Assembly (NCBI GenBank): GCA_963777605.1
Contig: CAVZRV010000010.1
Location: 448,001-512,000, forward strand
Source of the DNA: an uncultured Acidobacteriota bacterium
GTDB taxonomy: Bacteria > Acidobacteriota > UBA6911 > RPQK01 > JAPXNP01
Direction: 5' to 3'
DNA: 64,000 nucleotides
Each line of letters opens with the position of its first letter. The first letter of the stretch is position 1. This document shows, one piece after another, positions 5,791-47,470 of the stretch. Position numbers and translations under genes: made by a program. Below the pieces are notes generated by a model. The model was not told the DNA's origin, made no database searches, and worked only from the letters and a program-made list of their open reading frames with translations.

Positions 5791-8230
5791 CTATACTTCG
5801 AGTGGAGCAACGCCCCAGATGTCACGGGCGTACTCGGAAACCGCCCGGTCGCTGGAGAACTTGCCCATCGATGCGGTGTTGAGGATCGACCGCCGGGCCC
5901 ATTCGTCGGAATCCTTGAACATCTCCCCGACCGCGACCTGGGCCTCCAGGTAGTCATGGAAATCGGCCAGGACGAGGTAATTGTCCCCCCAGTTGAGCAA
6001 CGAGTCCACAATGGGAGCGAAAAGCCCACGGTCTCCATCGGAAAAGGTCCCGTCAGCGATCGAATCGATGGTCTCTTTCAACTCCGGATCGGACTCGTAG
6101 ATCGCCCGGGGAAAGTGCCCAATTCGGCGTCGCTCGGCGACTTCTTCGGCGCTCAACCCAAAAATGAAAATGTTCTCGCCGCCAACCTCCTCGAGAATCT
6201 CCACGTTGGCCCCATCGAGCGTGCCGATCGTCAGTGCCCCGTTGATAGCGAACTTCATGTTTCCGGTCCCCGATGCCTCCATACCGGCGGTGGAAATCTG
6301 CTCCGACAGGTCCGCCCCGGCGATCAACTTCTCAGCCTGCGATACGCAGTAGTTGGGCAGAAAGACCACTCTCAAGCGACCCCGGACATCGGAATCCGCA
6401 TTGACTACCTCGGCCACCGAGTTGATCAGCTTGATGATCAGCTTCGCCCGCCGATAGGCCGGGGCGGCCTTTCCGCCGAAAATCACGGTCCGCTGGGCGA
6501 ATTCCCCGGCATCTCCACGTTTGATCCGCCGGTAAAGCGTGATCACGTGGAGTACGTTCAACAGTTGGCGCTTGTACTCGTGGATCCGTTTGACGTGCAC
6601 GTCGAAGAGGGATTCAGGATTTACGCCCAGTCCCGTTTTTCGAAGGATGTAGCGGGCCAGCCGCTTCTTGTTCCGCAGTCGAACTTCCCGCCAGCGCGTC
6701 CTGAATTCCTGCGTTCTCCGCCAGGGGCGTCAGCCCCGCGAGGAGATTGAGGTCGAGAATCCACTCCGGGCCGACCTCAGAGGTGATCAGTTCGGAGAGA
6801 GCCGGGTTCGCCTGAAACAGGAACCGCCTGGGCGTCACGCCGTTCGTGACGTTTCGAAGGCGACCCGGAAAGATTTCGTCAAAATCGCGAAAGATGCTCT
6901 CCCTGAGGATCTTGCTGTGCAGCGCCGCCACTCCGTTCACGCTGTGAGATCCGACGACGGCCAGGTTGGCCATCCGAACCCGCCTCTGGGATCCCTCCTG
7001 GACCAGAGACACCCTGGCCGGCAATTCCGGGTCCGAACAGGAACCCGAATTCAGCATCCCGAGAAAGCGGCCATTGATCTCAAAGATGATCTGCAGGTGA
7101 CGAGGAAGGATCCTCCCGAGCATGTCAACCGGCCAGGTTTCCAGCGCCTCCGGCAGGACGGTGTGATTGGTATACCCAAACGTCGCCTGGCAAATACTCC
7201 AGGCTTCCTCCCAACCCAGACCCTCTTCGTCCATCAGTAGCCGCATCAGTTCGGGAACGGCCAGCGCCGGGTGAGTGTCATTCAATTGAATGGCGACGAA
7301 ATCCGAAAAGGAGGACCAGTTGCGGTGCTGCTTCTTGAAGCGCCGGATGATGTCCTGCAGCGTCGCCGATACGAAAAAGTGCTGCTGTCTGAGACGGAGC
7401 TCTTTGCCCTGCTCGATTTCGTCGCTGGGATAGAGGACCTTGGAGATGTTTTCGCTGAATACTTTCGACTCGACCGCTCCGACATAGTCCCCGACGTTGA
7501 ATTGCGCGAGGTTGAACTCACGACTCGAGTGAGCCACCCAGAGCCGCATGTGGCTCACGTAGCCTCCAGAGAAACCAGGAATAAGGATATCGGAGGCCAT
7601 CGCCAGCACCGACTCCGTGTCGGACCACCGGAAACGAAGTTCACCGTCAGCGTCACGGTACGATTCAGAACGCCCGTTGAACTGAACCCGGTAGAGGACT
7701 TCGGGCCGCTGGATTTCCCAGGGAGACCAGGACCGGCGCCAGTTGTCCGCCTCTTCCTTTTGATATCCGTCAACCAAACGCTGATGGAAAATCCCGAAAT
7801 CGTAGCGAATCCCGTAGCCGGTCCCGGGGATCTTCAAAGTCGCCATCGAATCGAGGAAACAGGACGCAAGCCGGCCGAGCCCCCCGTTACCGAGCCCGGG
7901 ATCCCACTCCTCTTCCTCGAGATCCTCCAGCTCGTAGCCCATCGACCGGAGCGCCTCCTGGGCTTCCGCCTCCATCCCCAGTGCAGCCAGGTAGTTGCGG
8001 AGGAACCGCCCTGGAAGAAACTCCATCGACAGGTAGTAGGCCCGTTTCGCCAGTAACTCATAACAAGCGCGCTGGCTCGCCAGCCACCGGCTGACGAGAC
8101 GGTCCCTCACGGAATGGGCAAGTCCGATCCAGACCGCGGAACGGTCGGCCAGATCCGGGTCTATTGCGAGAGTGAATTCAATGTGACGGCGAATGGAATC
8201 AGCCAACCCGCCTTTCAAGGAGACATCCAT
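5791..8230 (-). CDS. glgP: Glycogen/starch phosphorylase, split by a +1 frameshift near 6708
   Basis: GLGNGGLGRLASCFLDS and IQLNDTHP in the first ORF. KRIHEYKRQ and EASGTGNMKF (PLP lysine) in the second. Removing one base restores ..ENAEFRTRWREVRLRNKKRLA..LFDVHVKR. Confidence 0.95.
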
Positions 8231-29692: not shown

Positions 29693-31086
29693 CGCGCCAC
29701 CTCCCGGGCTCCCGCAGCCGGCCGGAGCGTCAGCCAGCTCCCTGCGGTATAGATGATCACCGTAATGAACCAGGCCGGCAGTGCCTTGAAAAAGATTTCG
29801 ACGGGGATCAGGAACGAGATCCCGATCGCGCCGACCCAGGCCAGAAATGCCGGCCAGTTGAAGAGAAGTCCGCGCTTCTCTGCGACATAACTGTCGAGTC
29901 CGAGCTTGGGGAAGAGCCAGAAATCGGCGAAAATCACCGCACCCATCGGCATCAGGAGGAGCCCGTAGAGGGCAACGAAGTCGAGCAGATTCATGACCAG
30001 CGCCGGAAAGAGCGCCGCGACCGTCGTCGCCAGCCCTGTGAAAAGAGTGACCTTCCAGCGCCTCCAGTTCGGGGTCGCGACCTGAAAGGCAAGTCCGGCC
30101 CGGTACAGTGTCGGGTTGGCGGTCGTCCAACCGGCAATCACAACGCAGACTGCACCGGCTACGCCGGCTCCGAGGTAGGCAATCGGACCAGGGGCCACGA
30201 CCCCCAGCGCCGCTGCACAGAGAATCCCCGATGCGATCCACGCAATGAAGTGACCCAGGTACATCCCCGCAGCGGAGGCAAAACCGTACTGCCACTTCTT
30301 CGCGTACCGCAGAATGGTCAGGTCGGACATCCCAATGTGCATGGCGAGGTTGCAGAACCAGGCAAAGAACATCACGTGCCAGAAGGTGAACTGAGTCTGC
30401 CCTGGAGTGACCGTTCCGGTCCAGATCTTCTCATTGGCCACTCGCCAGAAATCGCCCAGTGACGTGCACCCGAGCATCGGAAGAGCAGCGATACCTGCCG
30501 CGACAAAAACTAGAAACATCCACGGCACGCAGATCTTGGCGAACTGGGAAATCTTCTCGAATCCCAGGATCGCCAGCGCCGTGACAACAGCCCCGACCAG
30601 GAAAACCACAACCACCCAGGTGATACTCGTTGGAACGGTGTCCGAGAGCTCGGGCATGGGCATATTCAGCGGCAGGCCAACGGCCGTCGCAGCTACGGCG
30701 ATCATGGCTCCAGCCAGAAAGCAGAACATCAGTGCGTTGACGATCGAATAGAGGTAGGTCAGGTAAGGGCCGCAGATCTTCCTGAGCTGCCAGTAAAGAG
30801 TCAGGCGAGTCTTGACGGCGATCGGGGCACAGACGAAGGTCCAGCTAAGGACGGCCAGGAAGTTTCCCACGATCAGGCCCAGGAAAAGGTCGGCCGCGGT
30901 TACACCGTGGACAACAAAGAGGGGCCCGATGACAAACTCGGTCCCGGCCACGTGCTCGCCCGCGTACATCCCGAGAAAGCTCCGCAACCCGTAAAGGTGC
31001 TTCTCCGAGACCGGCTCCCGGTCGAACTCGTACATCGCGTCGAGCCGTTCCACCAACTTCGACCTGTTGTCCGCCGCCATCGGCAA
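29689..31086 (-). CDS. Purine-cytosine permease-like (NCS1/APC superfamily) transporter
   Basis: About 12 TM segments, EFDREPV, GEHVAGTEF, WTTANPTLYRAGLA. Confidence 0.8.
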   Translation of the reverse strand: MPMAADNRSKLVERLDAMYEFDREPVSEKHLYGLRSFLGMYAGEHVAGTEFVIGPLFVVHGVTAADLFLGLIVGNFLAVLSWTFVCAPIAVKTRLTLYWQLRKICGPYLTYLYSIVNALMFCFLAGAMIAVAATAVGLPLNMPMPELSDTVPTSITWVVVVFLVGAVVTALAILGFEKISQFAKICVPWMFLVFVAAGIAALPMLGCTSLGDFWRVANEKIWTGTVTPGQTQFTFWHVMFFAWFCNLAMHIGMSDLTILRYAKKWQYGFASAAGMYLGHFIAWIASGILCAAALGVVAPGPIAYLGAGVAGAVCVVIAGWTTANPTLYRAGLAFQVATPNWRRWKVTLFTGLATTVAALFPALVMNLLDFVALYGLLLMPMGAVIFADFWLFPKLGLDSYVAEKRGLLFNWPAFLAWVGAIGISFLIPVEIFFKALPAWFITVIIYTAGSWLTLRPAAGAREVAR

Positions 31087-31167
31087 CTCCTTCTCGTCCC
31101 TGCTATCCGCAAAAGGGTCAGCTTCGGCCTTGTGGCAGAAACACCCCGTCCGCTACCATGGGCAACC

Positions 31168-32418
31168 GTGCCCAATCACACTGCCCCCGACAATCCCAAG
31201 TCCGATCGAATTTACTACACCGATTCTTATGCGCAAGCGTTTTCTGCACGAGTGATCTCTCTGGCCGGCGGATATCCCAGCCCCGGCGTGATCCTGGAGA
31301 CGACTGCCTTTTATCCCGAATCGGGGGGACAGCCCTCCGACCGCGGGACGCTGGGACGACTGAAGATCATCGAGGTGATCGATACCGACTCGGGTATCGT
31401 CCATGTGGTGGAAGGCCCGCCCCCCGAGGTCGGAGAGGAAGTGCAGGGACGGATCGACTGGGACCGGCGTTTCGATCACATGCAACAGCACACCGGCCAG
31501 CACGTCCTCTCACAGGCGTTCATCGAAGTACTGGAAACTCCTACGATCGGCTTCCACATGGGAGAGTCGGTTTCGACCATCGACCTGGACGTCGACTCCG
31601 TCGCCCCCGAAGAGATCTCCCGGGTCGAGGCTCTGGCCAACCGGGTCGTCTTCGAGAACCGGCCGATCACGGTCCGGTTCGCCGATTCTTCCGAACAGGA
31701 AAGCCTGGGACTTCGCAAACCGTCTGAACGGTCCGGTCTGCTCAGGATCGTCGAGATCGCCGACTTCGACTGTTCGGCCTGCGGGGGAACCCATTGCAAC
31801 CAAACCGGAGAGGTCGGGCTGATCAAGGTTCGACGGCAGGAAAGGGTTCGTCAGAAAGCCCGGATTGAGTTCGTCTGCGGCTACCGTGCCCTCGCCGACT
31901 ACCAGTCGAAGACCGATCTCCTTGCGGCATCCTCCCAACTGCTGTCTATCGGCGAAGCCGATCTCCCTGCGGCGATAGAACGACAACTGGAGCAGCACAA
32001 GACCCTCCGAAAGGACCTCTCCCGCGCGCAGGACAAACTTCTCGAGTTCCAGGCGGCCCGGGCGGTCGAAGATGCCGAACAAGGGCGAGGTTACGAGGTC
32101 GTCAGCGGAGTCTGGGACGGTTTGGACATGGGTCAGCTCAACCGGTTGGCGGGAATGATTCTGCAGGATGCGGCGGCGAGGATCGCTATTCTCGGGGGAC
32201 GCGGTGCCCAGAGTTACCTGCTCTTCGGTCGGAGCCGAGATCTGTCCCAGATCGACCTCCGCCCGGTCATGGCCCGGGCGGCGGCCCTCGCGGGAGGACG
32301 AGGCGGCGGTTCGCCCGACCGATGCCAGGCAGGAGCCTGTAATGCGGAATCACTGAACGACGCGATTGAAACGGCGCGCAATGCGGTGAGAGACGGTGGA
32401 GGTCAAGGTGAAGATTGA
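31168..32418 (+). CDS. AlaX-type alanyl-tRNA editing protein with C-terminal DHHA1 domain
   Basis: TAFYPESGGQPSDRG, MQQHTGQH, CGGTH, GRGGG. Start GTG is inferred. Confidence 0.9.
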   Translation: MPNHTAPDNPKSDRIYYTDSYAQAFSARVISLAGGYPSPGVILETTAFYPESGGQPSDRGTLGRLKIIEVIDTDSGIVHVVEGPPPEVGEEVQGRIDWDRRFDHMQQHTGQHVLSQAFIEVLETPTIGFHMGESVSTIDLDVDSVAPEEISRVEALANRVVFENRPITVRFADSSEQESLGLRKPSERSGLLRIVEIADFDCSACGGTHCNQTGEVGLIKVRRQERVRQKARIEFVCGYRALADYQSKTDLLAASSQLLSIGEADLPAAIERQLEQHKTLRKDLSRAQDKLLEFQAARAVEDAEQGRGYEVVSGVWDGLDMGQLNRLAGMILQDAAARIAILGGRGAQSYLLFGRSRDLSQIDLRPVMARAAALAGGRGGGSPDRCQAGACNAESLNDAIETARNAVRDGGGQGED

Positions 32419-37649: not shown

Positions 37650-39167
37650 TCAAAGGAGATCAGGCTCGGTAGCCCGCGACGCCCCGTTTCTCAGCCGGGT
37701 CAGAAGAATACCCACGAGCAAGACTGTCAGGGTGCCGACGACCGTGATCATAAAGGAGTGAAACGGACTGCTCAAGAAACGGAGAGACTCGGGCCAGGCG
37801 TCAGTGGGAGAGAGCGTTGCCCAGAAGATCACCAAAACTCCGACGGTGACGGCGATTGCCGCCTCCGCTCCCCGCGCCCGGCGGGCGATCAGTCCGAGTA
37901 GAAACAGCCCGAGCATACCTCCGCTGAAGACACCCGATAGCTTCCACCAGGCGTCCAGAATCGTCCCAACCCGGATCATCGCGAGGGCGGTTGCCGTGCC
38001 GGCGATCCCCCAGCCCAGGGAGGCGAGGTAGAGGACGCGCATTGACTCCCGCTCTCCGGCTTCAGGCCGGAAATACCGCTTGTAGATATCACACAGCGTC
38101 AACGTCGCCGACGAGTTCAGCGAGGTGTCGATGCTGCTCATGGCAGCCGCCAGGATTGCGGCCAGCAGGAGCCCGGTCACTCCGACCGGCAACTGGTGAA
38201 CGATGAAGTGAGGGAAGACCTCGTCGGGACGGAGGTTTTGAATTGCGGCCAGGAGTTCGGGATGAACCGAGTAATAGGCGTAGAGGGCGGTCCCGATGAA
38301 AAAGAGCAAGGCCGAAACAGGGACGTAGAGCAGAGTCGCCAGCCAGACACTGCCGGCCGCGTCCCGGTCGCTCCGGGCCGCGCTGTAGCGCTGGACGAAG
38401 CTCTGGTCGATGCCGAAATTCTGGAGGTTCATGAAGAGGCTGTATAGGAGCACGACCCAGACGCTGGGCTCGACAAAGGAGAATGCCGTACTTCCGAGAC
38501 TGAATTTTCCGTGTTCGGAGGCCAGGGCAACGAGATGGGACGGGCCGCCCGGGAAGGTGAACAGGAGATAACCGGCCGAAACCAGCATGCCGCCGCCGAG
38601 AACGAAACTTTGCACCACATCGGTCCAGATCACGGCCTCAACTCCACCGACCATGGTGTAGAGAGTCACGAGGACTCCGGTCATGAGGATGATCGTGACA
38701 ACACTCCATCCGGTCACCGGGGAAAGTGCCAGTGCGACCAGCAGGAGCACCGTGCCGATCCGGGCAAACTGGGTGAGGAGATAACAAAAAACAGCGTAGG
38801 TACGTGCCCATCCACCAAATCGACGCTCCAGGTGAGCATAAGCCGATATTTCTCCACTGGAACGATAAAAGGGGACGAAGTAGCGCACGGCGATCACTGC
38901 GGCAACCGGCAACCCGAGGCTGAAAACGAAGGGATTCCAGTTCGACTGGTAACTCTTCCCTGGGTTTGCCAGAAAGCTGATACTGCTGACGTAGGTCCCG
39001 AATATGCTCAGTCCCACGACCCATCCCGGTAGCGACCGGCCGGCCACCATGAAGTTCACCGCGATCCGGCTCCGCTGGAAGAACCGACAGCCCAAACCCA
39101 CTATCAGCGCCAGGTAGAGAGCCAGGACCACAACATCCGCAACAGGTAAAGGGCTATTCAATGGCAC
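37650..39167 (-). CDS. Sodium:solute symporter (SiaT-like)
   Basis: SIFGTYVSSISFL, GGVEAVIWTDVVQ, DQSFVQRY, AAAMSSIDTSLNS. Confidence 0.92.
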   Translation of the reverse strand: MPLNSPLPVADVVVLALYLALIVGLGCRFFQRSRIAVNFMVAGRSLPGWVVGLSIFGTYVSSISFLANPGKSYQSNWNPFVFSLGLPVAAVIAVRYFVPFYRSSGEISAYAHLERRFGGWARTYAVFCYLLTQFARIGTVLLLVALALSPVTGWSVVTIILMTGVLVTLYTMVGGVEAVIWTDVVQSFVLGGGMLVSAGYLLFTFPGGPSHLVALASEHGKFSLGSTAFSFVEPSVWVVLLYSLFMNLQNFGIDQSFVQRYSAARSDRDAAGSVWLATLLYVPVSALLFFIGTALYAYYSVHPELLAAIQNLRPDEVFPHFIVHQLPVGVTGLLLAAILAAAMSSIDTSLNSSATLTLCDIYKRYFRPEAGERESMRVLYLASLGWGIAGTATALAMIRVGTILDAWWKLSGVFSGGMLGLFLLGLIARRARGAEAAIAVTVGVLVIFWATLSPTDAWPESLRFLSSPFHSFMITVVGTLTVLLVGILLTRLRNGASRATEPDLL

Positions 39168-39221
39168 AATCCATCCGTTGGTTCAGGCTCGGGAATCTGC
39201 ACTCGCGACCCGTCGCCAGAT

Positions 39222-40355
39222 TCAACGCGGCCCCTCAGCCAGTTTGACCGCGTCCTGGGGCCATTCTCCGCCTCGGATAACCGGCCCATTGAGGCGGGAA
39301 GGATCCAGAACCACGTGCTTGATCCGCTGGCGCTTCCAGGTATAGGTAATGTGCACGAAACCGTCCTTCGCCTGGATCACCGCGGGGTAGGAGAACTCCT
39401 CTCCCGGCGTGTTCTCGAGTACCAGCACTGCCTTCCAGTTCTCGCCGTCGCTGCTGACCGCGACGTTCAGCATCTCCCGGTCGGAAGGATTCGGACCACC
39501 CCGAACGGTGTGGTTGTATACCAATACTCTCCGGCCGTCCGCCAGCGTGACTGCGTCGAAGCCTGCATTGGGGTTGGGGAGAACCGTGGGGCTAAGTTCC
39601 GACCAGGTCCTTCCCCCGTCGCGCGACCAGGCCTGCAGGATTTTCCCCTTGCCGTTGCGGTTGCGACACAGCATCTGGATCCGGTCAGGCCCGTAAGTGA
39701 GGAAGGTCGGCTGGATCGCGGCGACTTCCTTGCCATCGTTCAGGGGACCAGTCCGGACCCACTCCAGGCCCTGGTTGCCGGTCCACTCCAGGTGTATGCG
39801 CCATCCCTGGTCTTCCGTGCTCGCGCCGCAGAGGATCGGGCCGTCCGCCGGCTGGATCGGCTTGTTCTTGATCGGCCCCAGGATCCCTTCGGGCAACCGC
39901 CGCCCCGGAGACCAGGTGATGCCCCGGTCCTTGCTCAGGCTGACCAATCCCCACCACTGACGGGGATTGGGACCAACCTTGTAGAACAGCATCAATGGCC
40001 CGTCTTTGGGCCGGAACAGGACCGGATTCCAGCATGGGTAACGGTGTTGGCCGTCACCGGCCAGAGTGTACTGCACCCCGTCGGCCACCTCTACTGGCGC
40101 CGACCACTCTCCGCCGGTCAGTCGGGAAAGCCAGATACCCACGTTCGGTTCACCCTCCCCGTCGCCTCCAAACCAGGCGGCAGCGAACTGACCCGCGTCC
40201 GCCTCCACGATAGTGGAGGCATGACAACTTGCGAACGGAGCAGACTCAAATATGAACTCTGTCTTCACCACGCTTCCCGCAGAAAACCCCGAAGCCGGAA
40301 ATCCCGAGAACATACAAACCAGGCCCCACAACAGCATCGATCGAATTTCGTTCAT
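39222..40355 (-). CDS. Exported BNR-repeat sialidase-family protein
   Basis: Signal peptide MNEIRSMLLWG.., CHASTIVE, WNPVL, Asp-boxes SKDRGITWS / SRDGGRTWS / SSDGENW, EFSYP. Confidence 0.85.
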   Translation of the reverse strand: MNEIRSMLLWGLVCMFSGFPASGFSAGSVVKTEFIFESAPFASCHASTIVEADAGQFAAAWFGGDGEGEPNVGIWLSRLTGGEWSAPVEVADGVQYTLAGDGQHRYPCWNPVLFRPKDGPLMLFYKVGPNPRQWWGLVSLSKDRGITWSPGRRLPEGILGPIKNKPIQPADGPILCGASTEDQGWRIHLEWTGNQGLEWVRTGPLNDGKEVAAIQPTFLTYGPDRIQMLCRNRNGKGKILQAWSRDGGRTWSELSPTVLPNPNAGFDAVTLADGRRVLVYNHTVRGGPNPSDREMLNVAVSSDGENWKAVLVLENTPGEEFSYPAVIQAKDGFVHITYTWKRQRIKHVVLDPSRLNGPVIRGGEWPQDAVKLAEGPR

Positions 40356-40429
40356 CGGCCTGTTCCTCTCCAGACTACCCTTGCCAAAACTCATCGTCGT
40401 CGCATGTACTTTCAGTGTGAAACGAAGGC

Positions 40430-41645
40430 TCAGACTTCTCCGCCCGGCAGGGAGTCCAAATCGACTCTTCGCCCTTCGCTGGCGGCGAGGTAGGCCGCGT
40501 AAACCACTCTCACGACCTGAAGGCCCAACTGACCGTCGGTGAGCGGCTCCCGGTCCTGCGATCACGTCCTCCAGGAACGACCGACACATCCCCCAGTGCC
40601 CTGAAGTCCAATCCTCGTCAGGCATCGGAGTGGACCATCCGGCGCTGGTTTCCAGCTTCTCCAGCAGGTACTGCCCGCGAAATGTCTCGAGGGCCGGTGA
40701 ATATGCCTGAACCAGGTTGTTTGGACTCAGGTTGCAGACAAACCGCGCGTTGGAACCGAAAATTTCAATCCGGCTTTCCATCCCGCCGAGCATGGTGTCG
40801 GAAGCCCAGACCAGCCCCCGAGCCCCGTCTTCAAACGTAACAATCGCCGATCCCCAGTTCTCGACATCCTTCCAGCCCCGTGCAAACCAGACTTTTTCAC
40901 CCCGGTTCAGCGATTCGATCCGGCTCAAATCGCCGACTTCGGCGGTTACGGAAGCTGGCCTGATCGGCTTGCCGTCACGGATCTTTCCCTCCAGGGCCTT
41001 CAGGTAGATCATCGTGCCGACGGGGTGGGCTCCCAGCCTGAGCAGAGCCCCTCCACCCGTGTAGCGCCAGATCTTGGAGAACTGGGAGTGGGATCCGCTG
41101 TGGCACTCGCCCCCACGCATCTCGACGATCGTCCCGCCGCTTTGGCTCAAGAGGCCGGCCACTTTACGAACCGACGGTGCATAGAGCCAGTTCTCTCCGT
41201 ACATCAGTTTGATCCCTCCGGCCCGGGCAGCTTCGACCATTGCGGCTGCGTCACGCACCACCACGTCGAGCATGTGGCGCCGATCCTGGCTTGAGATATC
41301 TTCGTCGGTGCAGTCGGCCGGAAGGTCCTGCCCGACGTATGCAGTCAGCGGCTTGGTGCAGACGACGTGTTTTCCAGCGGCTGCCGCAGCTTCTGTCATC
41401 GGCCGGTGAAGGTGATTCGGTACGCAAAGGTCCACCAGTTGGATGTCCGGCATCTCCAGCAACTCGCGAAAGTCGGTCGTCCACTTGGGAATGCCATGCC
41501 GGGAGGAATACTCCCGCGCCCGCTCGTCCGACACGTCGGCGACCGCCCGAATCGGCTGCTCCAGGCCGCCCGCCTTGGCGTAGCATCGGGCCCGGGTCTC
41601 CGCCAGAAAGCCTGCTCCAATGATCCCAACTCCGATCTGCTTCAT
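40430..41645 (-). CDS. Gfo/Idh/MocA oxidoreductase, with a +1 frameshift near 40556 that fuses it artefactually to the next gene
   Basis: IIGAG, PNHLH, GKHVVCTKPL, GGGAL. The canonical C-terminus REPLTDGQLGLQVVRVVYAAYLAASEGRRVDL ends at TGA 40430 in the shifted frame. Confidence 0.85.
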
Positions 41646-41874
41646 TGTTCGTTCCTCAGCTGTTGCCCACCGTTGAGCGTCCGGGGGTGATGCGGGCAGG
41701 CGTCAGGCACACCTCCCATCACACCGGGACGGAATTCGACTCGAAAACCGAGCTTCCCAAGAATACAATCAACAGTGATTTTTACAAACCATCGGACGGC
41801 GCGCCGGAAAGGTCTCGGCCCGGGGCGAAGAATTCCAGCGAATTGTATACTTTCCCGGACGAAGGGAGGCATCG

Positions 41875-42762
41875 TTGGAGATTCGAACAGCAGTCATACC
41901 AGTTGCGGGTTTGGGCACGCGGCTCTTGCCGGCAACGAAGTCCCAGCCGAAAGAGATGCTGCCGGTAGCCAAGAAACCGGTGGTTCAGTACGTCGTGGAG
42001 GAGATGGAGGCCAACGGCGTCAAACAGATTCTTCTGGTCACCGGTAAGAGCAAGACCTCAATCGAGAACCACTTCGACTTCGACCACGAACTGACCCGCC
42101 ACCTCCGGGAGAGCGGCAAGGAAGACCTGCTGCCCGAACTCGAGTACGAGCGCATGCGGCTCGAGTTCTTCTTCACCAGGCAGCGCAAGCAAAAAGGGCT
42201 GGGAGACGCCATCCTGTGCGCCCAGCATTTCACCCAGGACCACCCCTTCGTGGTTGCCCTCGGGGACAGCATTCTGGGGATCCATGGTTCCTCCCAGGTG
42301 GTCAGCCAAATGATCGAGACATTCGAGGAGCGCAACGCGGCGGCAGTCATCGCTATTGAGGAAGTTCCCCGGGACCAGGTTTCGTCCTACGGCGTCGTCA
42401 AGCCGGACGGCAAAGGCAACGTTTTTGTGATCGAAGACCTCGTCGAAAAGCCGGCCGTAGACGAGGCCCCGAGCAACCTCGCAATCGCGGCGCGATACGT
42501 CTTCTCCCCGGCCATCTACTCGGCCATCGCCCGCACCGAACCGGGCAAGAGCGGCGAAATCCAGCTGACCGATGCGGTGCGGCTCCTGATCGACGAGGGG
42601 CAGACCGTACTCGGCGTCCGGATACCCTCACACCAGAAGCGCTACGACATCGGCAACTTCCGAAGCTATTTCGAGGCGTTCATCGAGTTCGGGCTCGATG
42701 ATCCTGAACTGGGTCCGTACCTGCGCCGTTTCCTCGAGGCGAGACTACATGAAGATCATTGA
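41875..42762 (+). CDS. galU: UTP--hexose-1-phosphate uridylyltransferase (GalU family)
   Basis: VIPVAGLGTRLLPATK.QPKEMLP, GLGDA, LGD, VEKP, GEIQLTDA, YDIG. TTG start with GGGAGG RBS. Confidence 0.9.
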   Translation: MEIRTAVIPVAGLGTRLLPATKSQPKEMLPVAKKPVVQYVVEEMEANGVKQILLVTGKSKTSIENHFDFDHELTRHLRESGKEDLLPELEYERMRLEFFFTRQRKQKGLGDAILCAQHFTQDHPFVVALGDSILGIHGSSQVVSQMIETFEERNAAAVIAIEEVPRDQVSSYGVVKPDGKGNVFVIEDLVEKPAVDEAPSNLAIAARYVFSPAIYSAIARTEPGKSGEIQLTDAVRLLIDEGQTVLGVRIPSHQKRYDIGNFRSYFEAFIEFGLDDPELGPYLRRFLEARLHEDH

Positions 42763-43759
42763 GTCGATTGCCTTCGCGCGGGCGGGTTTACTGGGCAATC
42801 CGTCCGACGGGTACTTCGGAAAGACCATCTCACTCGCGTTCCAGAACTTCCGGGCGCGGATCGTCCTCTACGAGTGGCCCGAACTGGAGATCATTCTCAG
42901 CCGGCAGGACCGCTGTGAGTTCTCAGGCCTCGACGAGCTTGTCGAAGACGTCAAGCTCAACGGACTTTACGGCGGACTTCGCCTGATCAAGGCTGCCATC
43001 AAGGTCTTTGCCGAGTACTGCACCACCCACGAGATTGCGCTGCCCGATCACAACTTCGCGCTTCGCTACGAGACAGACATTCCGCGGCAGGTCGGCCTGG
43101 CCGGCTCGAGTGCCATCATCACGGCGGTAATCCGTGCCCTGACCCGCTTTTACGGTGTGGACATCAGCAAGCCTCACCTCGCCAACCTGATCCTCTCCGT
43201 CGAGACCCGGGAGATCGGGATCGCCGCGGGCTTGCAGGACCGCGTGACTCAGGTCTATCAGGGCCTGGTCTACATGGACTTCGCCCGGGAACACTTCGCA
43301 AAGCAAGGTTTCGGCAGTTACGAGATACTGAGGCCTCCGGTTCCGCCGGCATTCTATGTCGCTTATCGCCAGAACCTGAGCCAGATCTCCGGGGTCTATC
43401 ACAGCAACCTGAAGGAACGATGGGAATCGGGTGAACCGCAGGTGATCGGCGCCATGAACGAGTTCGCCAGGCTTGCCGAGGAAGGCAGAGCCGCCTTGAC
43501 AGAAGGCGACGTTCCGGCTTTTTCGCAGTTGATGGACCGCAACTTCGACCTCAGAAGAAGTCTCGTCCGACTCGATCCCATCAACATCGAGATCGTGGAG
43601 GCCGCCCGCAAGCTGGGTGTCTCGGCCAAGTATGCGGGGTCCGGTGGTTCGATCGTGGGCGTCTGCGCTGAACAGGACCGATTCGAGGCGCTGAGCCGCT
43701 CACTGGGGGACCTCGGCTGCGCGGTCTTCAGACCCACCCCGGCCCCTCCGCTGGAGTGA
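42749..43759 (+). CDS. GHMP kinase, glucuronokinase-like
   Basis: ARAGLLGNPSDGYFGKTIS, YGG, YETDIPRQVGLAGSSA, IAAGLQDRV.QVY.GLVYMDF, KYAGSGG. Overlaps the galU stop by 14 nt. Confidence 0.85.
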   Translation: MKIIESIAFARAGLLGNPSDGYFGKTISLAFQNFRARIVLYEWPELEIILSRQDRCEFSGLDELVEDVKLNGLYGGLRLIKAAIKVFAEYCTTHEIALPDHNFALRYETDIPRQVGLAGSSAIITAVIRALTRFYGVDISKPHLANLILSVETREIGIAAGLQDRVTQVYQGLVYMDFAREHFAKQGFGSYEILRPPVPPAFYVAYRQNLSQISGVYHSNLKERWESGEPQVIGAMNEFARLAEEGRAALTEGDVPAFSQLMDRNFDLRRSLVRLDPINIEIVEAARKLGVSAKYAGSGGSIVGVCAEQDRFEALSRSLGDLGCAVFRPTPAPPLE

Positions 43760-44161: not shown

Positions 44162-47100
44162 TTAACCTCCGTTCACATTCGAATCAGGGGAAACTTTGAC
44201 GACCGAACCAAATCTTCGACCGGCCAGGAAGTAGAGTATCGGAACGGTCATTCGGGACAGCAGCAGCGAGGCGACCTCACCGGCCATCAAGGATATCGCC
44301 AACCCCTGGAAAATCGGGTCGAAAAGGATCACCGATGCACCCACTATAACAGCAGCGGCCGTCAACAGCATGGGGCGAAACCGGACGGCACCAGCGTCCA
44401 CGACGGCTTTGTCGAGAGGTACCCCTTCTCTCAGCCGCAGCTCTACGAAATCGACCAGAATGATCGAATTCCGCACCACGATTCCCGCACCCGCGATGAA
44501 ACCGATCATCGACGTCGCGGTAAAGAAGGCGCCCATGCCCCAGTGCGCGGGCAGAATGCCGACCAGAGAGAAGGGGATGGCAGCCATAATCACAAACGGC
44601 GTCAACAACGACTGGAACCACCCGACGACGAGAATGTAGATCAGCACCAGTACCGCCGCGAAGGCAATTCCAAGATCGCGGAACACTTCGTACGTGATGT
44701 GCCATTCACCGTCCCACTTCACAGCATACTGCTGAATCTCAAAGGGCTGCGCAGCCGTGTACTGGGCAACCTTGTACCCGGGCGGAAACCGCACCTTTTC
44801 GACGCTGTCGCTCAGCTTGAGGATGGCATACACGGGACTCTCCTCGGTGCCCGCGACGTCCCCGGTCACGTAGACGACCGGCTTCAGGTTCTTGTGATAA
44901 ATGCTCTGTTCGTTGACCGACTTCTCAAGCCGCACCAGTTCACCGAGAGGGACCTGCTGCCCCCCTTGGCCGGTCAGTCGGATTCCTTCGATGGCAGACA
45001 GGCTCGAACGGCGCTCCTTCGGGAGTCTGAGCAGGATCGAGACGTCCTCCTTCTCATGCGGATCGTGGAGCAGGCCGGCGCTCATTCCATCCACGGCCAG
45101 CCGAACGGTGGCGGTGATCTGTTCGACCGAGATTCCGCTCAGCGCCGCCTTCTCCTGGTTGACGTGGAAGATCAGTTTCTCCTGGTTGGCTTCGATGTAG
45201 GAATCGACATCGACTACGCCAGGGGTGTCCCGAAAGATGTCTTCGATCTGGCGGGCCAGTTCAATCTGCTTCGAATAGTCCGGGCCGTAGACCTCGGCCA
45301 CCAGGGTCTGGAGCACGGGCGGACCCGGCGGAACCTCGGCCACCTTGACGGCAGCTCCGTAGCGGGCCGCGATTTCCTGGATCGGTCCCCGGACCTCCTT
45401 GGCGATCGGGTGACTCTGCTGGTCCCGGTCCTCCTTGGGAGCGAGGTTCACCTGGATGTCGGCCTGGTTGGGCAGCCGGCGCAGGAAGTAGTGACGGACG
45501 AGTCCGTTGAAGTTGTACGGAGCCGACGTCCCCACGTAAGTCTGGAAGTTCATCACTGCCGGCACCGTCGCCAGGTAGCTGCCGATGTCATGAGTGACCG
45601 CTGCGGTATCTTCGAGGGTCGTACCCTCGGGCATATCGATCACAACCTGGAATTCACTCTTGTTGTCGAAGGGCAGCATCTTGACCGTGACCAACTTGAA
45701 CGCAACCATCGAAAGTGCCCCGATAAGCAGGACCACCACCCCGATCAGGAAGCTGTAGCGTATCATCGGGACGTGGATCAGCCGGCCCATCACCTGGCGG
45801 TACATCCGCGTGCTCAATCCCTCCTCGTCGCGGTGTCCATCGTCCCCGTCTTCGTGTCGCTTGAGCAGTCGAACGGAGGCCCACGGAGTCACCATGAACG
45901 CCACCAGGAGAGAAAACAGCATCGCTGCCGATGCCCCCACCGGAATCGGCCTCATGTAGGGACCCATCAACCCGCGGACGAATGCCATCGGGATGATCGC
46001 GGCGATGACAGCGAATGTCGCCAGGATGGTCGGGTTCCCGACCTCGTCCACCGCCTCCGTTGCGACTTCCAGGATCGGTCTGCCCCGGTTTCCGGGCAGC
46101 CGGTAGTGACGGACGATGTTTTCGACGACCACGATGGCGTCATCGACCAGAATACCGATTGAGAAGATAAGAGCGAAAAGCGTCACGCGGTTGAGCGTAT
46201 AGCCAAGAAAGTAGAAGACGACCAAGGTCAGGGCCAGGGTCACCGGAATGGCGATCGCGACAATTCCCGACTCGCGGAAACCGAGAGTCAACCAGATGAG
46301 GATGGTGACCGAGAGAATCGCCAGAAACATGTGGAAAAGCAGTTCATCCGATTTCTCTTCGGCGGTCGCCCCATAGTTCCGGGAAATCGTCATCTGGATA
46401 TCTTCCGGGACAAGCCTGCCGCGCTGGTCCTCAAGCTTCCGAATGACATTGTCCGCGACGTTAATGGCGTTGGTTCCCTTCCGCTTGGCTACCGAGATGG
46501 TCACTGCGGGGTAGGTACTTCCGACAACCCCTTGCTCGCCCCCATCCTCGATTCCGGCAGGCGCCCCAACTTCGTTCGGAGATCCGGGTTCGGCCCCGAT
46601 GCTTTCCGTGAATTTCGCGGCCGGGCCCTCCCCGAAGAGGACATAGTTGGAGAGCTCTTCCGGGCCGTCCACGACCTGAGCGATTTCGCGCAGGTAGACC
46701 GGACGGTTCGTGAAGACCGCCACGACCAGGTTCCGGACGTCATCCGATGTCCTCAGGAAGCCTCCCGTCTCAACCAGCACCTCCCGGTTCTCGGCCGAGA
46801 AGTTCCCTGACTGCATCTGCTTGTTCGACTGACCGAGGACCTTCATCACCCAGGCAGGCGAAACGTTGAGGGCTGCCATCCGGTTGACATCGAAGAGCAC
46901 CCTCACCTGCCGCCGTTGTCCGCCGATCAAGGTAACTTCTGAAACATCGTCCACCTGCTTGATCGAGTCATCGAGCTGTGCGGCGACTCTCCGCAGCATG
47001 TAGTGATCCTGCGTCTTGCTCCACAGTGTGATGCCAAGAATCGGGACGTCGTCGATCGATCGCGGCTTCACAAGGGGCGGGCTGGCGCCCGGCGGGATCA

Positions 47101-47470
47101 GATCGAAGTTCGCGTACATCTTCTGATTGAGCCGGACTATGGCCTTTTCCTCATCTTCACCAACCAGGAACCGGACGATCGCCATCGACGAACCCGGACT
47201 CGAAGTTGAGTAGATGTACTCCACCCCGGGAATCTCCCAGAGGAGCTTCTCCATCGGACGGGTGACCCGCTCCTCAACCTCTTTTGCGCTCGCTCCAGGC
47301 ATCTGCACGAAGACGTCGATCATTGGGACGATAATCTGCGGCTCTTCCTCGCGCGGCAGCATGAGCACCGCCCCAATTCCAAGGAGGATGGAGGCGGCAA
47401 CGATCAAGGGCGTCAACTTCGAGTCGATGAACGCGTGAGCGACTTTGCCTGCTAACCCTATGTTCTTCAT
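44162..47470 (-). CDS. RND efflux permease (AcrB/CzcA superfamily)
   Basis: [43 protein letters not shown]. Confidence 0.95.

Follow-up and report, generated by a model that had tools for sequence, protein, structure and literature searches.

Plants convert free glucuronate to UDP-glucuronate in two steps, with glucuronate-1-phosphate as the intermediate (reported in PMC2823444). This salvage arm uses a glucuronokinase, GlcAK1, and a UDP-sugar pyrophosphorylase, USP. Here, we describe an overlapping pair of genes that encode a GalU-like protein and a kinase of the GHMP superfamily, found in a stretch of 64 000 nucleotides (the window) of contig CAVZRV010000010.1 from an uncultured member of the Acidobacteriota. 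The pair is probably a two-step module that leads from free glucuronate to UDP-glucuronate. Homology, gene linkage, fusion forms, a residue pattern and a phyletic pattern were observed; the substrates of both enzymes, the dual specificity of the GalU-like protein and the physiological role are what we infer from them.

The logic proposed for the pair resembles that of the plant arm, and the kinase family is common to both (45 % identity, one clade). However, the second plant enzyme is of the PF01704 type, whereas the pair uses a prokaryotic GalU-type enzyme (PF00483) and its genes are translationally coupled. The plant arm also has a myo-inositol oxygenase (MIOX), whereas none was found in the source genome in a search that had no positive control. 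In fish GKUP, the kinase domain is 44 % identical to the window kinase over its full length and the domains are in the same order as the genes of the pair, transferase then kinase. The N-domain of GKUP was considered as an orthologue of the GalU-like protein and rejected, the best BLASTP match having an E value of 0.074; the two are unrelated beyond the superfamily.

In bacteria, the xylose salvage described for Solitalea canadensis (cited in PMC11267548) likewise begins with a GHMP kinase that acts at the anomeric position, and a versatile uridylyltransferase of the GalU type takes the second step. However, that kinase belongs to the GalK family, the sugar is xylose and the enzymes are promiscuous housekeeping enzymes, whereas the window contains a co-evolving pair of overlapping genes. 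The Bacteroides protein Fkp (fucokinase/GDP-fucose pyrophosphorylase) also joins a GHMP kinase to a nucleotidyltransferase, but its kinase falls in another GHMP branch of our maximum-likelihood (ML) tree. Fkp uses GTP and not UTP, acts on fucose and not on a uronic acid, and salvages one sugar. An Fkp-like protein of the source genome scores 494.5 bits with NF009948. A different sugar-activation pair, an HddA-like GHMP kinase (143.7 bits) that adjoins another nucleotidyltransferase, is found at G000:C27:434757-436743 (L090, L005).

To our knowledge, bacterial UDP-glucuronate is taken to arise only via UDP-glucose dehydrogenase (Ugd). The initial annotation of the window, in which bacteria were generally described as using Ugd instead of the plant-type route, needs softening on this point, as bacterial GlcAK homologues were reported in Solibacter, Dyadobacter and Verrucomicrobium in 2009 (PMC2823444) and the automated annotation of JGI already names bacterial homologues glucuronokinase. 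No characterized bacterial glucuronokinase or glucuronokinase-GalU operon was found in the titles and abstract beginnings of the open-access literature. What is new here is the substitution in the sugar pocket, the apparent replacement of the resident GalU by the linked one, and the pattern of a UDP-glucuronate decarboxylase (UXS) without Ugd.

The kinase belongs to the glucuronokinase family

Both domains of the GHMP superfamily were detected in the kinase with scores above the Pfam cut-offs (GHMP_kinases_N, PF00288, 53.7 bits; GHMP_kinases_C, PF08544, 32.4 bits), and its ATP-binding motif, of the P-x-G-S-G-L-G-S-S-A type, is IPRQVGLAGSSA. This block was quoted in the initial annotation together with ARAGLLGNPSDGYFGKTIS, YGG and AGLQDRVTQVYQGLVYMDF, as closely resembling Arabidopsis glucuronokinase. 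All four are present in the kinase translation and the resemblance is real. BLASTP gave identities of 45 % over 311 aa to glucuronokinase 1 of Ziziphus jujuba (E 4e-85) and 44 % over 340 aa to GKUP of Danio aesculapii (E 4e-97). These two are orthologues, by name, of the Arabidopsis and zebrafish enzymes that were assayed, and not the assayed proteins themselves. The Arabidopsis enzyme is reported to be specific for D-glucuronate (PMC2823444), and the zebrafish enzyme of the GKUP family to be a glucuronate-specific kinase with a Km of 31 µM (PMC3938481).

Searches of protein collections gave the same picture. Proteins of near the kinase length numbered at least 8000, and many of the 120 listed carry the JGI name glucuronokinase. 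Longer proteins listed included the fish 'glucuronokinase with putative uridyl pyrophosphorylase', 43–47 % identical over 97–99 % of the kinase query, and a search of representatives found 547 clusters at E ≤1e-30, with Z. jujuba glucuronokinase 1 among them. The kinase does not reach any NCBIfam equivalog, the best match there being mevalonate kinase at 47 bits, and its best solved relative by sequence is an HddA-like kinase (E 4e-13).

An ML tree of 30 rows, from which plant GalAK was left out, placed 23 rows in a GlcAK clade (support 95/97, stem length 2.48). These are the window kinase, 11 linked bacterial kinases, three from fusion proteins, two distant acidobacterial kinases and six eukaryotic members. 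The GalK of the source genome, three HddA-like kinases, Fkp, ThrB and IspE all fell outside it. The window kinase retains 79 of the 91 positions (87 %) that are invariant in the six eukaryotic rows, whereas its paralogues in the same genome retain 23–29. Three blocks, GNPSD, PRQxGLxGSSA and GLQDR (DQ in GalK and HddA), are common to the window, linked, fused, plant, algal and animal rows; they were read from our own alignment and are not a published definition. Judged by its sequence, the kinase is a member of the GlcAK family, and it is probably a D-glucuronate 1-kinase.

Distant members of the family from f9 genomes (L065 of G002 and L066 of G055) are 39–42 % identical to the window kinase and contain GPMDR in place of GLQDR. 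Their genes lie directly after an SSS transporter gene and near Gfo and xylose-isomerase-like genes, and no nucleotidyltransferase gene was found beside either of them. They possibly have a catabolic role or a different substrate. The family is therefore not functionally uniform, and an identity of 44–45 % leaves room for a shift in specificity, so the kinase might instead act at C1 of galacturonate, xylose, arabinose, galactose or glucose, with a promiscuous GalU making the matching UDP-sugar, as in the xylose salvage of S. canadensis. We consider this quite improbable, because the kinase keeps most of the positions that are invariant in eukaryotic GlcAKs, the plant and fish enzymes are reported to be glucuronate-specific (PMC2823444, PMC3938481) and the source genome has a separate GalK. 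Moreover, the presence of UXS in the absence of any Ugd (see below) calls for a source of UDP-glucuronate and not of UDP-xylose.

The plant, algal, fungal and animal GlcAK rows form a single clade nested within the bacterial rows, with the kinases of Actinomycetota pairs branching deeper. This nesting depends on rooting by the outgroup, involves long branches and is not robust. As eukaryotic GlcAKs nest inside the bacterial radiation, the plant and animal glucuronokinases may descend from a bacterial module like this pair.

The two genes are linked in several phyla

The GalU-like gene adjoins the kinase gene in 53 of 54 related loci from species-representative genomes. In the sole exception, L059, the contig begins 85 nt before the kinase gene. 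These loci are distributed over the Acidobacteriota, Planctomycetota, Abditibacteriota, Actinomycetota and Bacteroidota, with one labelled Bacillota. The GalU-like gene precedes the kinase gene in 52 loci, and the order is reversed in one Bacteroidales locus. At the junctions of the 52 loci with the same order, the genes overlap by 14 nt in 38 cases and by 4 nt in five, and are separated by 1–19 nt in five and by about 90 nt in two. At least six natural fusions, all metagenomic and found among the 120 longer proteins listed, join a GalU-like N-domain to the kinase. Unlike fish GKUP, these do carry a GalU-like N-domain, 37–43 % identical to the GalU-like protein of the window over its whole length. 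The two-gene unit with a 14 nt overlap reported in the initial annotation was confirmed in the translations of the open reading frames (ORFs), and the adjacency, the recurring overlap and the fusions identify it as a conserved functional unit.

No conserved third gene was found when 82 flanking ORFs of 12 loci were compared with Pfam, and synteny is lineage-specific only. In one locus, L034, a gene for a UXS/ArnA-like SDR lies directly 3′ of the kinase gene. No UDP-glucuronate-using glycosyltransferase is conserved beside the pair, the flanking genes varying between lineages. This variability would suit an explanation without coupling, in which the GalU-like protein is a housekeeping UDP-glucose pyrophosphorylase and the kinase is co-transcribed for regulatory or historical reasons, with its product going to catabolism or another route. 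So would the finding that most pair-bearing genomes have no GalU-type gene besides the linked copy (see below). However, the two genes adjoin each other in 53 of 54 loci from several phyla, and this, together with retention of the 14 nt overlap, six independent fusions and the co-clustering of both trees, makes the explanation very unlikely. In addition, we know of no catabolic route that consumes glucuronate-1-phosphate.

The GalU-like protein has an altered sugar pocket

The GalU-like protein contains an NTP_transferase domain (PF00483, 116.9 bits) and does not have the UDPGP (PF01704) fold of USP. It is homologous over its full length to canonical GalU, YngB and GtaB, and its best matches in the PDB are GalU/YngB enzymes (E 3e-68 to YngB). 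The GalU model TIGR01099 matches it end to end with 307.5 bits, below the equivalog cut-off of 326.8; this is weak evidence for a difference, because only five of 14 control genomes exceed the cut-off.

GalUs were compared in a sample of 121 genomes spread evenly over the phylum, including two (G049 and G024) that are flagged as unpublished and on which alone no claim is made. A GalU homologue was present in 98 of them and a cassette-type kinase in five, with the distant type in three more. The five linked GalU copies are 63–79 % identical to the window protein, while all other GalUs in the sample, including those from the same order, are at most 48 % identical. In a GalU tree of 41 rows, 19 of 20 linked or fused rows, the window protein included, form one clade that spans four phyla (SH-aLRT 100), and all 20 unlinked acidobacterial GalUs are on the other side of the tree.

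The catalytic and ligand residues known from KpUGP and Escherichia coli GalU (list taken from PMC11796359 and PMC4643126) are retained. In E. coli numbering, A16, G17, T20, R21, K31, E32, Q109, G114, D137, G179, E201, K202, Y218 and D265 are conserved in the window protein, which thus keeps the catalytic residues and those that contact uridine, phosphate and Mg, and these positions are invariant or nearly so in the 54 linked rows. The one systematic exception is the residue that follows the Mg-binding Asp. It is Ser132 in the window protein, Ser in 51, Thr in two and Ala in one of the 54 linked rows, and Cys in all six fusion proteins. In the 20 unlinked acidobacterial GalUs it is Asp (19) or Glu (1), and in E. 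coli GalU it is Val. The equivalent Asp134 of YngB is reported to contact the glucose moiety (PMC7961091). D131 of PaUGP is likewise described as a glucose contact, with the D131A substitution nearly abolishing activity, and the Val found there in KpUGP as dispensable (PMC11796359). Further changes in the linked clade are D33K, H111D (GLGH to GLGD), G254E, K262F and R276D, and VDKP is replaced by (A)KKP. A sugar pocket with one acidic side chain fewer would be in keeping with a carboxylated substrate, although this is not proof of one. Together, the tree, the identities and the residue pattern bear out that the kinase-linked GalUs are a clade of their own and that their sugar pocket is changed.

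Other GalU and UDPGP genes in pair-bearing genomes

Eighteen distinct pair-bearing genomes were examined (G124 is the same genome as G088). A second GalU over the equivalog cut-off was found in two (G122 and G128) and a weaker second copy in three, leaving 13 with only the linked copy. No GalU-type match above 50 bits other than the linked gene was found in the source genome. A PF01704 UDPGP gene was present in seven of the 18, the source genome included. However, the gene in the source genome (L063, G000:C15:19861-21094) is split over two frames. Two genomes of the same family have an unbroken copy, and the split one is either a pseudogene or the product of an indel in the assembly.

These data bear on the suggestion in the initial annotation that the GalU-like protein may be a glucuronate-1-phosphate uridylyltransferase. 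In a dedicated version of this, the specialized enzyme would no longer make UDP-glucose, which would come from another enzyme such as a PF01704 UDPGP. The strong separation of the linked clade and its changed GalU motifs (GLGD, (A)KKP, K262F and R276D) would agree with such a dedicated enzyme, as would the PF01704 genes in the source genome and six others and the canonical GalU kept beside the pair in G122 and G128. Yet 11 of the 18 genomes do not have a PF01704 match, both PF01704 and a second GalU are missing from at least four (G088, G123, G125 and G131), the PF01704 gene of the source genome is split, and the catalytic and glucose-contact residues are unchanged save one. On balance, we regard a dedicated enzyme as improbable, and the linked gene did not prove to be a paralogue beside a housekeeping galU, either here or in most other pair-bearing genomes. 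Since most of these genomes have no GalU other than the linked enzyme, UDP-glucose is most likely also one of its products.

UDP-glucuronate decarboxylase without UDP-glucose dehydrogenase

The source genome encodes a UXS with 413 bits (E 8e-123) to human UXS1, as well as a second UXS/ArnA-like SDR. A UXS orthologue is present in all 18 pair-bearing genomes and in 101 of the 121 genomes of the phylum sample. In contrast, no Ugd was found in the source genome, and the check for ugd proposed in the initial annotation thus favoured its reading. Its only nucleotide-sugar dehydrogenase scores 262–280 bits with UDP-ManNAc dehydrogenase models and 202 bits with UDP-GlcNAc dehydrogenase models, against 54–174 bits with UDP-glucose dehydrogenase models, and its gene adjoins one for a TviC-like epimerase. 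With no Ugd found, the source organism would obtain its UDP-glucuronate mainly or solely through the module.

Among the 18 pair-bearing genomes, a Ugd-type gene was found in 11, was ambiguous in one (G134) and was not found in six, namely the source genome (G000), G100, G088, G123, G125 and G126. No member of the nucleotide-sugar dehydrogenase family was found in the last four, by a search whose control was detected in 11 of 14 genomes. In the phylum sample, Ugd was not found in three of five pair-bearing genomes versus one of 116 others, the latter being 93 % complete. These figures include a correction for four threshold artefacts: at E 1e-90 five genomes without the pair appeared to lack Ugd, but four of them (family f33) have one that was scored in two pieces beside UXS. 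A naive Fisher test gave p 1e-4, which is overstated since the genomes are related.

Proposed pathway

In the proposed pathway, the kinase would use ATP to phosphorylate free D-glucuronate at C1, yielding glucuronate-1-phosphate. The translationally coupled GalU-type enzyme would then combine this with UTP to form UDP-glucuronate. This second enzyme is predicted to have a relaxed specificity, having lost the acidic sugar-contact residue that would repel a carboxylate. The product would feed UXS, for UDP-xylose synthesis, and other uronate-using steps.

Several observations weigh against this pathway. For the kinase, identities of 44–45 % do not fix the sugar, and no solved GlcAK structure, on which the sugar site could be mapped, was found by a sequence search with the kinase. 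Two kinase genes contain in-frame stop codons: in L027 from genome G126 this is a TAG at codon 192 (L027:6574-6576), and in L021 it falls at aligned residue 290. For the transferase, a Val takes the place of the Asp in enterobacterial GalU, an ordinary UDP-glucose enzyme, so a protein that has lost the Asp may still function as a plain GalU. The linked copy from the Bacteroidales is above the GalU equivalog cut-off (364 bits), and being the sole GalU in 13 of 18 genomes has the look of a housekeeping GalU. The pyrophosphorylase half of zebrafish GKUP is reported to be barely active in vitro (PMC3938481). The genomes without Ugd represent few lineages, with G088, G123 and G125 close kin and G000 and G100 in one family, and 12 of the 18 pair-bearing genomes are outside this set; the pair is therefore not simply a replacement for Ugd. 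On the side of supply, no GH67 or GH115 glucuronidase was found in the source genome, and the failure to find MIOX, given the missing control, carries little weight.

A stronger version of the proposal combines several claims. Where UXS is kept and all nucleotide-sugar dehydrogenases are lost, the pair would be indispensable as the only way to UDP-glucuronate and UDP-xylose, and the GalU-like protein would have displaced the resident GalU and would act as a pyrophosphorylase for both UDP-glucose and UDP-glucuronate. We advance this combination tentatively and consider it somewhat unlikely as a whole. If the pair were the sole route, envelope sugar synthesis would need scavenged uronic acids or, as no MIOX was found, an unrecognized internal source of free glucuronate.

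The locus and neighbouring genes

The source assembly (6.7 Mb, 53 contigs) is 96.7 % complete and 5.7 % contaminated. The features of the locus are listed in Table 1. Both flanking genes are on the minus strand, and the pair is therefore a separate plus-strand unit. The kinase ORF as listed extends over 42698..43759 (+), but an internal ATG gives the 336 aa protein of Table 1. This start is supported because alignments to relatives begin at query residue 1, and the recurrence of the 14 nt overlap in other loci also supports it. The promoter candidate matches at nine of 12 hexamer positions, and one such site was found versus 0.5 expected from shuffles.

Table 1. Positions in the window of the gene pair, associated features and neighbouring genes
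Feature	Position	Strand	Basis
GalU-type sugar-1-phosphate uridylyltransferase, 295 aa, TTG start	41875..42762	+	ORF listing, Pfam, TIGR01099
GHMP kinase of the glucuronokinase (GlcAK, EC 2.7.1.43) family, 336 aa, ATG at 42749	42749..43759	+	ORF, Pfam, BLASTP, ML tree
14 nt overlap of GalU-like stop and kinase start (translational coupling)	42749..42762	+	ORF coordinates
Weak sigma-70-like promoter match in the 229 nt divergent intergenic region upstream of the pair	41741..41769	+	Consensus match only
Upstream flanking ORF, 807 aa, Gfo and sialidase-like	39222..41645	-	
BNR_2 and SSS genes	37650..40355	-	
Downstream flanking gene	44162..47470	-	

The genes upstream of the pair encode a Gfo/Idh/MocA domain, a BNR_2 (sialidase-like) domain and an SSS transporter. 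In the initial annotation these were a divergent Gfo-sialidase-SSS operon that could supply the substrate, and this was not sustained. The 807 aa ORF represents two genes joined by a frameshift, with the break near 40554-40561. The C-terminal part that Gfo has in relatives (L009 residues 362-396) is found in a different frame, at 40457-40561, and at 40355 the BNR_2 protein has a Met of its own with a signal-like start. The BNR_2 and SSS genes lie between Gfo and a cytochrome c gene in the source genome only. The closest relatives lack both at their syntenic loci; there, Gfo alone is kept (eight loci) and is followed directly by genes for cytochrome c and a tricorn-type protease. The two genes look like an insertion in the source genome, and the SSS protein is only 25 % identical to those beside the distant f9 kinases.

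A hexuronate catabolic pair, uxaC (uronate isomerase) followed by uxaE (tagaturonate epimerase), is found on the same contig (G000:C10:538058-540925; L103:8050-10925), about 47 kb from the gene pair and about 26 kb beyond the end of the window. As the source genome carries uxaC and uxaE, free hexuronates are part of its metabolism.

Two further ORFs were noted in the window. A glycogen phosphorylase ORF at 6617-8230 (-) spans only profile positions 2-420 of 713, and alanyl-tRNA synthetase domains are found in a short ORF at 30907-32415 (+). These may be further assembly indel errors.

Implications

UDP-glucuronate is the entry point to envelope polymers that contain glucuronate, galacturonate, xylose and arabinose. 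If the proposed pathway is correct, metabolic reconstructions of abundant soil phyla, the Acidobacteriota and Planctomycetota among others, would change, as would the reading of genomes that have UXS but no Ugd. The linked clade would represent a natural experiment on the relaxation of GalU sugar specificity. The pair would also offer a compact, NAD-independent bacterial means of making UDP-glucuronate, which now relies on a plant kinase.

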